DNA of 40,070 bases, taken from a virus. This document shows positions 1 through 40,070 of the stretch, piece after piece. The translations under genes and the position numbers were made by a program. The first letter of the stretch is position 1, and each line of letters starts with the position of its first letter. The notes beneath the pieces are model-generated. The model was given only the letters and a program-made list of their open reading frames with translations, made no database searches and was not told where the DNA came from. The DNA lies in IMG/VR virus record IMGVR_UViG_3300043137_000143; one strand, written 5' to 3'.

Positions 1-127
1 CCAGCAGCGGTGAAGAAGACATACAAGACTGAACTCTGCACTTGTTGCAAGGTTCATACCCCACAGTCCTAAGGAGGACTCATGAATACAGAAAAACTAG
101 TAGCAATTGCTGGTACGTATCTTCGTG
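1..127. repeat. Terminal direct repeat: 1-127 identical to 39944-40070 (circular-assembly overlap or terminal redundancy)
   Basis: Both ends compared base by base and are the same 127-nt string. It carries the last 72 nt of the endolysin ORF, an AAGGAGG RBS and the first 46 nt of the 82..273 ORF. Confidence 0.95.
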
Positions 128-273
128 CTGCTTTTGCATCTGTGCTAGCCATGTACATTGCGGGAGTGACAGACCCTAAAGCACTAGGCTCAGCATTCCT
201 TGCCTCTCTCGCTGCACCTATCTTGAAGGCATTAGACCCTAAAGAAACAGCGTACGGAAAAGGCTCAGAATAA
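82..273 (+). CDS. Holin-like small membrane protein (r1t-like pattern), last gene of the late operon across the circle junction
   Basis: 63 aa with two hydrophobic/amphipathic stretches (LRAAFASVLAMYIAG, LGSAFLASLAAPILKAL) and a polar tail. AAGGAGG sits 5 nt upstream. It lies directly after the endolysin once the circle is closed. Confidence 0.6.
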   Translation: MNTEKLVAIAGTYLRAAFASVLAMYIAGVTDPKALGSAFLASLAAPILKALDPKETAYGKGSE

Positions 274-7308: not shown

Positions 7309-7700
7309 TAGTACCAACCTTTCCGTTCGTGAAACTTCCATGCCATACAAGGCGTGCCATACCTATGCATAATGTAGGCGAAGCCTCTGTCAATCTGTAA
7401 TGGTGCTGGTGTCTTAGGGTCTAACCCCAGTATCTGTGGGATACCGCCAGCATTCTTACCCATTACCTTTACCTTATTGTACGCTTCCGTTCGCCAGTTG
7501 GACTCCTGTGTCCATAGTTTATCTAAGCACTCGTACTGGTTAGCAGCCCAAGTAAGTACTACATCTTGAGCATAAGCCTTGCTATCTTCGATAGCCCATT
7601 CCCTTACTGGTAACGGAGTCTCCTCCGTTCGGCTAACCGAACGAGTAAACGCGAATAACACCACTGCTACAACTACAAGTGCAATTACTTTCTTGGTCAT
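7308..7700 (-). CDS. Secreted or membrane-anchored SLT-like lytic transglycosylase
   Basis: N-terminal signal anchor MTKKVIALVVVAVVLFAF, then CLDKLWTQESNWRTEAYN...GGIPQ...YGTPCMAWKFHERKGWY (E-S catalytic motif and GIPQ). Confidence 0.65.
   Translation of the reverse strand: MTKKVIALVVVAVVLFAFTRSVSRTEETPLPVREWAIEDSKAYAQDVVLTWAANQYECLDKLWTQESNWRTEAYNKVKVMGKNAGGIPQILGLDPKTPAPLQIDRGFAYIMHRYGTPCMAWKFHERKGWY
7625..7640. promoter_or_regulatory. Operon palindrome, copy 1
   Basis: gttcggctaaccgaac. It is intragenic, encoding RSVSRTEE of the SLT-like ORF. Confidence 0.6.
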
Positions 7701-8020
7701 ACTGGTACCTCAATCCAAGGTCTAAGCGCTCTGTAACTTATGAGTGCTCGTCCCTCATCAGATAATTTATTGAACCTCTTGCCAGTCATGATGACACGCT
7801 CACCTGCAAGTGTACCACCCCAGATGCCGAATGCCAAGTTTTCTGGTTGCATACCTTGGTCTAGACATTCCTCCTGTGCAGGGCATGAGTTACATAGGGC
7901 GATGGCCCTACCTGCCTCTTGTCCTATCGGTGCTAGTCGCTTGGGTGTGGGTGCGCCAACTGGCACCTCTGGATACCAAGCATCGGGGTTACTATCCCCT
8001 GTGCAGTTACCTCTAATCAT
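7697..8020 (-). CDS. whiB: WhiB-like Fe-S transcription factor
   Basis: C-x36-C-x2-C-x5-C followed by GIWGG. N-terminus CTGDSNPDAWYPE. The start is chosen at ATG 8020 behind GGGGAG; the track's 8056 start is a TTG. Confidence 0.85.
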   Translation of the reverse strand: MIRGNCTGDSNPDAWYPEVPVGAPTPKRLAPIGQEAGRAIALCNSCPAQEECLDQGMQPENLAFGIWGGTLAGERVIMTGKRFNKLSDEGRALISYRALRPWIEVPV

Positions 8021-8144
8021 CTCCCCACATCCTGTCTGGTTCTCCGTCGTAGTCAACTAGGTCGTCAAGTGTATCCTCGTCAAGTTCCTCGTACTCATCA
8101 TCTAACTCGAATACATCGTCATTCAATGGCGGTTCGTAACTCAT
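8013..8144 (-). CDS. Hyper-acidic small protein (43 aa, 20 D/E)
   Basis: Hand translation: MSYEPPLNDDVFELDDEYEELDEDTLDDLVDYDGEPDRMWGDD. TAATG coupling upstream, and its end overlaps the whiB start by 8 nt. Confidence 0.5.
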   Translation of the reverse strand: MSYEPPLNDDVFELDDEYEELDEDTLDDLVDYDGEPDRMWGDD

Positions 8145-36880: not shown

Positions 36881-38908
36881 GTGGCTAGAGATATTACCGA
36901 AGGTGATGGTGGAGTCTATTCCGATTTTGACGGCAGTGGAGTATCCAACGTTGCACGTGGTATTGCCGATATTGGTGTCGTTTCATCTACTGCCATCTGG
37001 CAGAACACCGACATTGCCTATGATGTAGCAGTTGGCGGACTTCCATTCATCTATGCAATCAATGACTCACGTCCATACATCCGTCAGACTGCACCATTCC
37101 GTAAGGACCAGTTCGACAATGGTCAAGAGCCAGGAGAGCAATCTCTAACTGGTTGGTGGATTCGCTCACAACGCTCTTTCCACTCTGGTGCTGGCATCAA
37201 CTTCTTTGACCCAGCAACCACTGATGAACTTGGACATTATCGCTTTGCAGACAGCAGAGGCATTAATGTCTGGACTAAGGGTGAGGCAACACTGCTTAAC
37301 GATGTAGACAACAACCACATAACAACAGGACCTATATCTGGAACAGACCATCAGCATGTCAACCAGCACGCACGTTCTATCCAGTACAATGGAACAAATG
37401 CTGTACTACTCCATGATGAGTACGATGTAGATAAAATTGTGCCAGGTGCAGACCCTGTTCACTTCATTGACTACCTTGAAGGTGGGGCAGAGCCAGTACG
37501 TGCAATCTGTGACGATGGTGTGTATGCCTACTGGGTAACTAATAAGGTTGAAAGCAGCGCTAACAAGTTGCATATGTACAAGAAACCATTGACTGGCTCT
37601 TCTGCTAGCACCGCTGATGAAGTACTTATGTTTACCGCAAGCGGCTTAGTGATTCAATACGCAACTATGGAATTTGTTAAAGACCGTATTGTTCTTTGCG
37701 TTAACAACAAGGTTTACGAAGTATTCACAAACTCAACATCTTTGCCTTCACCAATATACACTAACACCAACACAAACTACCACTACACTTCTGTTGCGGC
37801 ATCTGGTCCTGCTATATACACTGCAGGTCACTCAGGTATCTACTCAACCATCCAGAAGTACACATTGTCAAGCAATGGCTCAATGCCAGTTCTTACATCT
37901 GCGGTAGTTGCAGCAGAAATGCCTGCTGGTGAGATTGTTGAGAAGATTTACTACTACCTTGGGTACATGATGATTGGTACAAATAAAGGTGTGCGAGCAG
38001 CGGCAATTAACGACCAAGATGGCTCCCTAAAATATGGACCGCTCATCGTAGAGACATCTCAGCCATGCTACGACTTTGCTGGAAGAGATAGGTTCGTATG
38101 GGCTGCTACTGGCATTGGTAATTTAGATGGCGGACTTATCCGCTTTGACCTCGAGAATGACTTAGAAGAACTTCGTTTTGCTTACGCTAACGACTTGCAA
38201 GTGTCTCAGACATCTGTTCACTACACAACAGCGGTTGCATTTATTGGCGCTACCAATAGCCTTTCTTTCACTACAGCGCACAACACTACCAATGGTGCAA
38301 TCTACACAGAATCAACCAACAAGGTTGCATCTGGCTACCTAACAACAGGTAACATTCGATTTGGCACACTTGAGCCTAAGAACTTCAAGCGATTAATTGC
38401 TAGAGGTGACTACCGATATGGTGAGATGACTCTTGAGACTGTCGACAAAGATGGCATCGAGCATGACCACATAACATACAACCTTGCAATTCCATCAGTT
38501 GAGGTGGGTACATCTGCCCCAGCAACTGCACAAGAGTACGTCGCGTACAAGTTCATCTTGTACCGTGATGCAACAACAACAAGCCTAGGTCCAATCTTCA
38601 AGGGATACCAGGCTAAGGCAACAATCGCTACACCACGTCAGCGTGTTGTACGCTTCCCTGTCTATTGCTTCGATATCGAAACAGACAGATTCAACTCAGT
38701 AATTGGGTACGAAGGCAGAGCCTTTGATAGAATCCAAGCGCTGGAAGAAGTTGAAGAGAATGGTGACATTCTTACATGGCAAGACCTATCGACTGGCGAA
38801 TCACGTCAAGCGGTGCTAGAGCAAGTTACATTCACACGCATGACTCCTCCCGATAAGCGCTTTGACGGTTTCGGTGGAGTCCTAGAGATAACCATTAGGA
38901 CAGTATAA
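36881..38908 (+). CDS. Large virion structural protein (tail/nozzle or spike candidate)
   Basis: 675-aa ORF with a GTG start behind AAGGAG. It is the last structural gene before the lysis cassette. No motif recognised. Confidence 0.65.
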   Translation: MARDITEGDGGVYSDFDGSGVSNVARGIADIGVVSSTAIWQNTDIAYDVAVGGLPFIYAINDSRPYIRQTAPFRKDQFDNGQEPGEQSLTGWWIRSQRSFHSGAGINFFDPATTDELGHYRFADSRGINVWTKGEATLLNDVDNNHITTGPISGTDHQHVNQHARSIQYNGTNAVLLHDEYDVDKIVPGADPVHFIDYLEGGAEPVRAICDDGVYAYWVTNKVESSANKLHMYKKPLTGSSASTADEVLMFTASGLVIQYATMEFVKDRIVLCVNNKVYEVFTNSTSLPSPIYTNTNTNYHYTSVAASGPAIYTAGHSGIYSTIQKYTLSSNGSMPVLTSAVVAAEMPAGEIVEKIYYYLGYMMIGTNKGVRAAAINDQDGSLKYGPLIVETSQPCYDFAGRDRFVWAATGIGNLDGGLIRFDLENDLEELRFAYANDLQVSQTSVHYTTAVAFIGATNSLSFTTAHNTTNGAIYTESTNKVASGYLTTGNIRFGTLEPKNFKRLIARGDYRYGEMTLETVDKDGIEHDHITYNLAIPSVEVGTSAPATAQEYVAYKFILYRDATTTSLGPIFKGYQAKATIATPRQRVVRFPVYCFDIETDRFNSVIGYEGRAFDRIQALEEVEENGDILTWQDLSTGESRQAVLEQVTFTRMTPPDKRFDGFGGVLEITIRTV

Positions 38909-39108
38909 TGAACATCACGCAGTGGGCTAGTTTAGCCGTATCTATTATAGCAATCGTAGCCGCATTTGCTGGTTCTGTTAGATGGTTAGTCAAGCATTAC
39001 CTTTATGAACTCAAGCCAAACGGAGGTGGCAGTGTTAAAGACCAAGTTAATCGCCTTGAGGCTCGGATTGACGATATCTATCGTATTATTTGCGAGCGCG
39101 ATAACTAG
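38908..39108 (+). CDS. Lysis-cassette membrane protein (N-terminal TM helix plus short helical ectodomain)
   Basis: MNITQWASLAVSIIAIVAAFAGSVRWLV then ELKPNGGGSVKDQVNRLEARIDDIYRII. Confidence 0.6.
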   Translation: MNITQWASLAVSIIAIVAAFAGSVRWLVKHYLYELKPNGGGSVKDQVNRLEARIDDIYRIICERDN

Positions 39109-39253
39109 TTGTGGTTATCAAGGTTGGATAAGATATCCATGCCAAGAGTTTGAAAACTGGGAAAAGCCAGAATGTAATCCACCCCAGTGCATACCGACTG
39201 GGACTTGCACTAAAGATATTCTTCCAGGAGTATTAGATGAACCAAAAAAATAA
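39032..39253 (+). CDS. Small Cys/Pro-rich lipoprotein in the +1 frame, overlapping the 3' part of 38908..39108
   Basis: GTG 39032 lies 5 nt after GGAGG. The signal peptide MLKTKLIALRLGLTISIVLFASA precedes the lipobox ITS-C. The mature 47 aa is CGYQGWIRYPCQEFENWEKPECNPPQCIPTGTCTKDILPGVLDEPKK. The track ORF starts at ATG 39005. Confidence 0.55.
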   Translation: MLKTKLIALRLGLTISIVLFASAITSCGYQGWIRYPCQEFENWEKPECNPPQCIPTGTCTKDILPGVLDEPKK

Positions 39254-39512
39254 GTTTAGCCCAGAAGACCTTCATGCTCGACTGATTGTGACAATCGGTA
39301 TTATACTAGCCATCGTCTTCGCTGGCTCAGTGTTTGCACTGCTATACGCATTGCTATTTATCACACAACCATTAGGAGAACAGGCACCTAACGATGCTGC
39401 ATTTATTGACCTTGTTAGTACCTTGTGCGTGTTTCTTACTGGTTCTCTTGCTGGCGTACTTGCAGGAAATGGATTAAAGTCAAAACCTAAGGAAAAGAAA
39501 GATGGAGAATAA
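39237..39512 (+). CDS. Holin candidate (2-3 TM segments and a charged C-terminal tail)
   Basis: LIVTIGIILAIVFAGSVFALLYALLFI and FIDLVSTLCVFLTGSLAGVLAG, then KSKPKEKKDGE. GGAG RBS. It lies directly upstream of the endolysin. Confidence 0.6.
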   Translation: MNQKNKFSPEDLHARLIVTIGIILAIVFAGSVFALLYALLFITQPLGEQAPNDAAFIDLVSTLCVFLTGSLAGVLAGNGLKSKPKEKKDGE

Positions 39513-40015
39513 TGAAGCCTGTTGTCAAGAAAGCCACACCTGCCGCTATTGCTGTCCTACGACAAGCCACAGCGATAGCGCCTTCGCGTTTGAAAGTCAG
39601 CGATGGACTTCTGCCATCGAAAGCGCATCAGTCACAGAACCCCAATTCAGACCATAACACAGGGTTTGCAGTTGACCTAACTCATGACCCTAAGCATGGA
39701 ATCGATTGCGTAGAAATCTTCCAGAAGTTAAAGGAAGACAAGCGAGTCAAGTACCTAATTTTTAAGGGAAAGATTTGGTCGGCAGAGCGTGCATCCGAAG
39801 GAAACCGCGATTACGACGGTAGCAATAAGCACAACAAGCACCTTCATATCTCTATCAATGACGATATGGGTAAAGATACTTCACCTTGGTTCTGGTGGCT
39901 CAATCAACCTAAGGTAATCAATCAGGTCAAGGCTGCGCTTACACCAGCAGCGGTGAAGAAGACATACAAGACTGAACTCTGCACTTGTTGCAAGGTTCAT
40001 ACCCCACAGTCCTAA
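39512..40015 (+). CDS. Endolysin, peptidase M15 / VanY-like zinc peptidase
   Basis: SDHNTGFAVD matches SxHxxGxAxD, and HLH supplies the second zinc ligand pair. TAATG coupling to the holin candidate. Confidence 0.7.
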   Translation: MKPVVKKATPAAIAVLRQATAIAPSRLKVSDGLLPSKAHQSQNPNSDHNTGFAVDLTHDPKHGIDCVEIFQKLKEDKRVKYLIFKGKIWSAERASEGNRDYDGSNKHNKHLHISINDDMGKDTSPWFWWLNQPKVINQVKAALTPAAVKKTYKTELCTCCKVHTPQS

Positions 40016-40070
40016 GGAGGACTCATGAATACAGAAAAACTAGTAGCAATTGCTGGTACGTATCTTCGTG
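39944..40070. repeat. Second copy of the 127-bp terminal repeat
   Basis: Identical to 1-127. 40025-40070 re-reads the first 46 nt of the holin-like ORF. Confidence 0.95.

Follow-up and report, generated by a model that had tools for sequence, protein, structure and literature searches.

Two overlapping genes at the 3' end of a phage genome raise the question whether a lipoprotein gene that begins inside the gene of a small membrane protein marks the two products as partners, i.e. whether such a pair in the lysis cassette of a probable actinophage is a spanin pair. The genome is the IMG/VR record IMGVR_UViG_3300043137_000143, a complete 40-kb phage record carrying terminal repeats; the whole stretch of 40,070 nucleotides that was analysed is called the window. 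A first-pass annotation had considered three readings of the locus: a spanin-like activity required by an outer layer of the presumed actinobacterial host, a superinfection-exclusion factor nested in the lysis cassette, and a fortuitous overlap. The cassette consists, in this order, of a 675-aa gene, which is probably a tail gene, a 66-aa transmembrane (TM) gene, the lipoprotein gene, a 91-aa two-TM gene, a 167-aa probable endolysin and a 63-aa holin-like gene. The relevant features are:

7697..8056, minus strand: WhiB-family gene (phrog_472, E 1e-9), a clue to the host (Actinobacteria) given for context only
38908..39108, plus strand: 66-aa single-TM protein with a PNGG-S-x-K-D motif; best match phrog_9869 (function unannotated)
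39032..39253, plus strand: predicted Cys-rich lipoprotein, 73 aa from GTG, recognised by its signal pattern and invariant residues
39237..39512, plus strand: 91-aa two-TM protein (phrog_25359, E 5e-35), overlapping the 3' end of the lipoprotein gene by 17 nt
39512..40015, plus strand: 167-aa putative endolysin (phrog_32486, function unannotated), assigned by motifs and position
82..273, plus strand: 63-aa holin-like membrane protein (phrog_37724, function unannotated), 3' of the endolysin across the terminal repeat

The host of the phage is probably an actinobacterium, because the WhiB gene is present and whiB is the usual actinophage marker in freshwater phages (PMC6802176). The same host had been proposed in the first-pass annotation from WhiB, an r1t-like holin and an SLT domain; both the WhiB gene and a transglycosylase are encoded in the window, and the host assignment is based on the former. 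A search of genome contigs gave no named host and one phage-like contig in a proteobacterial bin. The terminal repeat comprises ~128 nt, with its second copy beginning at 40026. The 167-aa protein contains the motifs S-D-H...D...H-x-H, which together with its position suggest an M15-type zinc peptidase; a PDB search found no match for it. The label "r1t-like" holin, which had been given to the product of 82..273, was not confirmed, as PF16945 was not matched.

The overlap itself is composed of two elements:

39022..39026, plus strand: putative Shine-Dalgarno sequence GGAGG of the lipoprotein gene, supplied by the Gly codons GGA-GGT of the TM gene
39032..39108, plus strand: dual-coding stretch of 77 nt, specifying the C-terminal helix of the TM protein in frame 0 and the lipoprotein signal peptide in the +1 frame

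The GGAGG sequence precedes GTG 39032 by 5 nt, and the first stop in the +1 frame is TAA 39251-39253, 145 nt beyond the stop codon of the TM gene. Coordinates, spacing and extension were thus reproduced exactly as first described. The signal consists of 26 residues: an n-region with K, K and R, an uncharged h-region, and the lipobox I-T-S-C, whose Cys codon (39110-39112) is the predicted lipidation site and lies just past the stop of the TM gene. Dual coding is confined to the signal peptide, and the mature lipoprotein is wholly single-coded. The latter comprises 47 residues, is rich in Pro and Cys, and contains the invariants R-Y-x-C-Q, W, C-x-x-P-x-C and C, with four further Cys residues beyond the anchor. 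All features of a signal peptidase II substrate (basic n-region, hydrophobic h-region, lipobox Cys) are visible in the sequence, as the first-pass annotation had stated for the signal and the mature peptide. This pattern and the existence of stand-alone homologues with ordinary ATG-started signals predict that the product of 39032..39253 is a lipoprotein.

A comparison of 108 distinct relatives of the TM gene distinguished four arrangements (C, B, E and N). The lipoprotein is found in type C, which is the type of the window (17 loci), and in type B (34 loci); the overlapping gene is absent from type N (10/108). When the TM protein was recoded in simulations with the genome's own codon usage, the +1 frame was open in 16.5% of trials, and a frame that is open in about 16% of random recodings is what can be said for a fortuitous overlap whose +1 frame contains no gene. 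An open +1 frame with an equally hydrophobic, charge-free core occurred in just 0.7% of trials, and therefore the overlap exceeds chance. Synonymous-site suppression, which had been suggested as a check, was clearly seen: the value for synonymous differences within the overlap is 0.21 in type C and 0.09 in type B, versus 0.38-0.51 in the single-coding flanks and 0.46 in type N. The +1 frame is neither interrupted nor unconserved, being open from the GTG in 17/17 type C loci, and the overlap is kept in 51 distinct loci. Moreover, the lipoprotein has hundreds of homologues, many of them stand-alone with their own ATG, its Cys residues are invariant, and the mature peptide has no alternative start or signal. 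The overlap is genuine, and selection acts on it; the probability that it is fortuitous is close to nil.

The relatives also show that the +1 slot is reusable. In type B, the lipoprotein starts from a TTG formed by Val-Glu codons (34/34), mostly after GGAG, and the +1 frame is closed upstream of this TTG in 30/34 loci. In type E (47/108), the slot holds an unrelated secreted protein of ~370-510 residues, which starts from the homologous TTG in 45 cases and has, besides its Pro-rich stalk, an N-terminal domain that varies and a C-terminal end that is hydrophobic; a two-TM gene of another kind (56 aa) follows downstream. In a tree computed for the 5' half of the TM gene from 111 columns only, the cargo types form a mosaic, and well-supported branches force 3-5 changes; such interleaving speaks for an exchange of cassettes inside this gene. 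In our reading, the 3' end of the TM gene is an overprinting slot, whose codons furnish, in the +1 frame, the ribosome-binding site, the start codon (GTG or TTG) and the signal peptide of a neighbouring exported-protein cassette. We infer that translation is coupled via the overlap; the slot would serve this coupling and save about 50-80 nt. The overlap does not mark binding partners.

For the window, two start codons have to be weighed, GTG 39032 and the following alternative:

39068..39070, plus strand: alternative TTG start, preceded by GAGG at 39058-39061 and homologous to the start TTG of types B and E

A TTG is found at this site in 16/17 type C, 34/34 type B, 45/47 type E and 5/10 type N loci; starting there would leave the lipoprotein with a signal of 14 residues that lacks a basic one. 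GTG 39032 is probably the start, because it is accompanied by GGAGG (present in 15/17 loci of the window's type, 0/34 of type B, 0/47 of type E and 2/10 without overlap), because the interval between GTG and TTG is free of stops in 17/17 type C loci versus 4/34 (B) and 5/47 (E), and because one locus (L165) has lost the TTG; note that these loci are related, so that the counts overstate the number of independent events, which are perhaps few. Synonymous variation between the two codons (0.35) favours neither start. Of the two starts proposed in the first-pass annotation, GTG 39032 is thus the favoured one, and ATG 39005 is not conserved. That the AGT Ser codon creating GTG 39032 is an innovation of the window's type was considered and dismissed, as type B has the same codon.

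Do the 66-aa protein and the lipoprotein form an overlapped i-spanin/o-spanin pair? The architecture matches that class (P2 LysB/LysC, T5; Kongari et al. 2018, PMC6139136): the lipoprotein starts in the +1 frame inside the upstream membrane-protein gene, its gene overruns the upstream one, and both lie in a lysis cassette. The conservation of the overlap at all 51 loci and the Pro/Cys-rich mature peptide are likewise in line with spanins. However, i-spanins are type II membrane proteins (N-in/C-out; PMC6139136), whereas the positive-inside charge rule, the sole basis of this topology, predicts the 66-aa protein to be N-out/C-in with a cytoplasmic C-terminus: the mean number of K/R is 0 before and 3 after the helix, and in 104/105 homologues basic residues are more numerous after it. 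Because of this predicted topology, the C-terminus could not meet a lipoprotein located outside. The N-terminal TM helix described in the first-pass annotation was confirmed, as was the length of only 66 aa, but the short helical "ectodomain" is, judged from the charge pattern, probably cytoplasmic. Searches of PHROG and Pfam gave no Rz-like match, and only ~40 residues follow the helix, compared with the long periplasmic coiled-coil of an Rz protein.

The two genes, moreover, assort independently. The TM gene occurs without the lipoprotein in 57/108 loci; conversely, just 55/150 lipoprotein loci have the upstream 1TM gene and 95/150 lack it, and away from the TM gene the lipoprotein is usually stand-alone with its own start, in many cases ATG. 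Their evolutionary distances are hardly correlated (Mantel 0.14), and the slot is filled by the unrelated secreted protein in 47/108 relatives and empty in 10. In contrast to overlapped spanins, the partners are thus not obligate; the host of the window phage probably lacks a proteobacterial outer membrane, and the lipoprotein family co-occurs with true Rz/Rz1 genes in phages of Gram-negative type. At 10 distinct loci, the Cys-rich family is accompanied by an Rz-like gene that is separate from it, and those inspected also showed a +1 lipoprotein frame of the Rz1 kind. For example, locus L356 encodes the two-TM protein and its Cys-rich lipoprotein together with an Rz (phrog_1327, E 8e-22), in which a +1 lipoprotein frame is nested, and a lysin of the GH19 type; MW202462, L443, L452 and L465 are arranged alike. 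In addition, a whole clade around MW202675 lacks the lipobox Cys (77/77) and carries the Cys-rich domain on a TM helix. The overlapped gene pair first described is real and conserved, whereas its function as a spanin, with the TM protein as partner, is largely refuted by topology and independent assortment; we regard a spanin pair on an actinobacterial outer layer as highly improbable.

For the 66-aa protein, the closest known counterparts are found among single-TM lysis regulators of the LysF1b/LysA2b kind (DUF2746; Pollenz et al., PMC13056207, bioRxiv 10.64898/2026.08.27.747656). Shared with LysF1b are the single N-terminal TM helix, the N-out/C-in topology, the basic residues that follow this helix and a helical tail rich in charges, whose charged fraction is 38% in the 66-aa protein and 0.33-0.39 overall, within the 30-50% used to define LysF1b; both also share their cassette with two-TM proteins, which for LysF1b is LysF1a. 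Unlike LysF1b, which has 88-150 residues, the protein has 66, and no homology is detectable. Membership in DUF2746/LysF1b was rejected: PF10874 was not matched, whereas the control Girr gp35 matched at E 8e-13, and the hhalign probability was 0.2%. The protein is best read, by topology only, as a LysF1b-like lysis regulator, and by analogy it may work like LysF1b.

If the TM protein is not the partner of the lipoprotein, which protein is? Its gene abuts both the 1TM and the two-TM gene, yet it co-varies with them unequally: for 62 loci with all three genes, the distance correlation with the two-TM protein is 0.70 (Mantel), versus the above 0.14 with the 1TM protein. With lipoprotein queries, the two-TM gene was found directly downstream in 140/140 loci; with two-TM queries, 115/126 Cys-rich genes were adjacent and the rest within 2 kb. 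Among the 248 loci obtained from either query, a Cys-rich gene lies <=2 kb from the two-TM gene in 247, the exception being L188, where a different small lipoprotein occupies that place and overlaps its upstream gene. C-terminal variants of the lipoprotein pair strictly with loop variants of the two-TM protein (37:0 and 15:0), although the co-variation of such adjacent genes is partly due to linkage. Co-inheritance thus shows the Cys-rich lipoprotein and the downstream two-TM protein to be the candidate functional unit.

The model of the two-TM protein (pLDDT 84) is a helical hairpin; both termini are basic, the tail included, and the loop is uncharged. Because of this charge distribution, the protein is predicted to be N-in/C-in. 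The outside loop is its most conserved region, with Q44 and D53 invariant in 79 sequences, and the second helix (TM2) contains conserved Gly repeats. All 79 aligned homologues matched phrog_25359, a family without annotation of which the 91-aa protein is a member, and database matches were uncharacterised phage proteins only. The model of the lipoprotein shows a small domain almost without regular secondary structure (pLDDT 81), for which no structural match was found; Pfam, PHROG, PDB-sequence and fold searches gave no match either, and an atlas search returned just viral clusters automatically named lipoprotein or hypothetical, a weak lead. Neither protein resembles a holin or antiholin family in sequence or fold.

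The mode of anchoring varies, while four Cys besides the anchor are invariant in the Cys-rich domain. The lipobox Cys is present in 155/157 loci found with lipoprotein queries and missing in 65/291 homologues, which have a TM anchor where inspected. Asp occupies position +2 in 10/16 Rz/GH19-bearing loci; in E. coli, this residue is the Lol-avoidance signal (PMC5727369). Because lipid and TM anchors interchange and Asp is frequent at +2 in these loci, both module proteins appear to stay at the cytoplasmic membrane, though Asp at +2/+3 may be part of a D-x-Y motif of the domain and not a sorting signal. A candidate fusion of half the lipoprotein to the two-TM protein (P0069) was set aside, since it stems from one 1-kb contig of one sample and could be a deletion or a misassembly.

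The module is present in lysis regions of numerous freshwater phages; in all, about 290 distinct loci carry it, and the hosts of these phages are very diverse. In several clades, it stands beside unrelated endolysins and holin-like genes. It is accessory: close relatives without the pair retain another holin-like gene. Each cassette already has such a further gene, so that a second one is not needed. The pair is also present in the cultured 129-kb Actinomycetia phage DSL-LC01, where it follows a ribonucleotide reductase and not an annotated lysin; in the clade of this phage, a peptidase adjoins the pair in just 22/64 loci.

Based on these data, we tentatively favour a reading that we consider slightly less than evenly probable: the two-TM protein is holin-like, and the Cys-rich protein is its regulator on the outside, by analogy to holin T and antiholin RI of T4 (PMC11413866). 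Late in infection, both proteins would be located in the cytoplasmic membrane. The hairpin, with its Gly-repeat second helix and basic cytoplasmic tail, would oligomerise and form lesions, either as an accessory holin or in the manner of a pinholin; the 47-aa domain, locked by disulfides and lipid- or TM-anchored on the outer face, would bind the conserved outside loop and thereby restrain or time the hairpin, as periplasmic RI does with T. The lysis-cassette context in most clades examined supports this reading, as does the finding that RI is functional when membrane-anchored (PMC11413866). The similarity to T4 is by analogy only (a small exported protein plus a membrane lysis protein): there is no sequence or fold similarity, and T is a single-TM protein with a large periplasmic domain, unlike the two-TM hairpin with its ~15-residue loop. 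The presence of another holin-like gene in each cassette, the lack of a holin or antiholin family match and the gene order in the DSL-LC01 clade speak against a holin and its regulator. That the hairpin is holin-like and the lipoprotein its outside regulator is the least certain part of the proposal.

The lack of a holin-family match agrees with the main rival, which is of some weight though on balance unlikely: a late superinfection-exclusion or receptor-masking module that keeps DNA from entering through the cytoplasmic membrane or shields progeny from cell debris, and that lies among lysis genes merely because they form the late membrane-protein operon. Small phage lipoproteins (T5 Llp, Ltp) and two-TM proteins (T4 Imm) act in this way elsewhere. 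The module is accessory and mobile, as expected for exclusion: numerous close relatives lack it, and it is exchanged for another surface-protein cassette. Its placement amid lysis genes in most clades examined, the lack of a match to known exclusion families in Pfam and PHROGs, and its very strong conservation between phages of the actinobacterial and the proteobacterial type, which is unlike receptor-specific exclusion proteins, argue against this reading.

The lysis-cassette position would also fit an accessory factor that follows the endolysin and weakens an envelope layer other than peptidoglycan, in the way LysZ has been proposed to act on lipoglycans. In a mycobacteriophage, lysis can be modulated by a lipoprotein (bioRxiv 10.64898/2026.08.27.747656), and LysZ of corynephages shows that actinophages can need such a factor (PMC13123898). 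Like the proteins studied here, LysZ is described there as an actinophage membrane protein of the lysis cassette with a suspected spanin-like role; unlike them, it has 177 residues, a proposed N-in/C-out topology and a long outward helix, and is described without a lipoprotein partner. As the module lacks a comparable helix and also occurs in Rz/Rz1-bearing phages, whose hosts have a different envelope, we consider this role quite improbable.

Returning to the holin-like hairpin and its outside regulator, the broadest form of this proposal, an undescribed lysis-control system of freshwater phages with actinobacterial and proteobacterial hosts, combined with a slot that swaps unrelated exported-protein cassettes, is unlikely, if conceivable. 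In such a system, an outside sensor would gate the holin-like protein and give lysis timing or inhibition in monoderm hosts. Overlapped signal peptides and actinophage cassettes with several membrane proteins are known kinds; a literature search of incomplete coverage did not find the Cys-rich plus two-TM module, its link to phrog_25359 or the reuse of a slot by unrelated cargo.

These results remove a tempting inference, namely that freshwater Actinobacteria need a spanin and hence possess an outer-membrane-like layer; spanins cannot be called from an overlapped TM/lipoprotein architecture alone. They define instead a compact two-gene module, whose lipoprotein is without family annotation in PHROG and Pfam. 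Finally, the 3' end of the TM gene clearly illustrates how, in nature, two unrelated exported proteins can make use of a single dual-coding stretch, within which the ribosome-binding site and start codon have been relocated between lineages.

The window's lysis cassette includes a gene whose product is probably an endolysin, carrying M15-like zinc motifs recognized only by eye; a comparison with Pfam and PDB gave no match. The cassette continues across the terminal repeat via a holin-like gene (82-273).

Window 39512-40015: probable endolysin
Window 1-128 and 39943-40070: direct repeat of about 128 nt at the two termini

Among the related loci (L-numbers), a GH19-lysin clade that includes MW202675 and L358 encodes a TM plus coiled-coil protein of 143-182 aa ahead of the Cys-rich gene. 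This protein gave no Rz-family match and follows two conserved secreted proteins in the gene order. The two-TM gene is present in MW202675 but absent from its annotation; likewise, the GenBank annotation of MW202462 lacks both an Rz-like gene and its nested lipoprotein frame.

L162:2400-3279 (MW202675); also L358: Cys-rich gene region, GH19-lysin clade
L361:3411-3905 (MW202462): Rz-like gene with nested +1 lipoprotein frame

Two loci carry variants of the lipoprotein and two-TM pair. The L188 lipoprotein gene starts 31 nt within the preceding gene, on a contig that is phage-like, yet was placed in the bin of a proteobacterial genome. The fusion P0069, found in one contig only, is possibly a deletion or misassembly.

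L188:3847-3998: unrelated 50-aa lipoprotein with two Cys, encoded upstream of the two-TM gene in place of the Cys-rich one
L351:35-412: P0069, N-terminal half of the lipoprotein fused to the two-TM protein

In type E relatives, a secreted protein also makes use of the overprinted start.

L084:1661-3192, L089:1661-3192, L121:864-2363: secreted protein, 370-510 aa

Its gene is followed by a 56-aa two-TM gene, which in L410 and L435 lies immediately upstream of the Cys-rich lipoprotein gene. The secreted protein, which had no match in PHROG, has an N-terminal domain that is exchangeable and, judged by eye, resembles PA14 or FN3, together with a Pro/Glu-rich stalk and a conserved hydrophobic C-terminus with the final residues R-R-K-P, and looks like a phage-encoded protein of the host surface.
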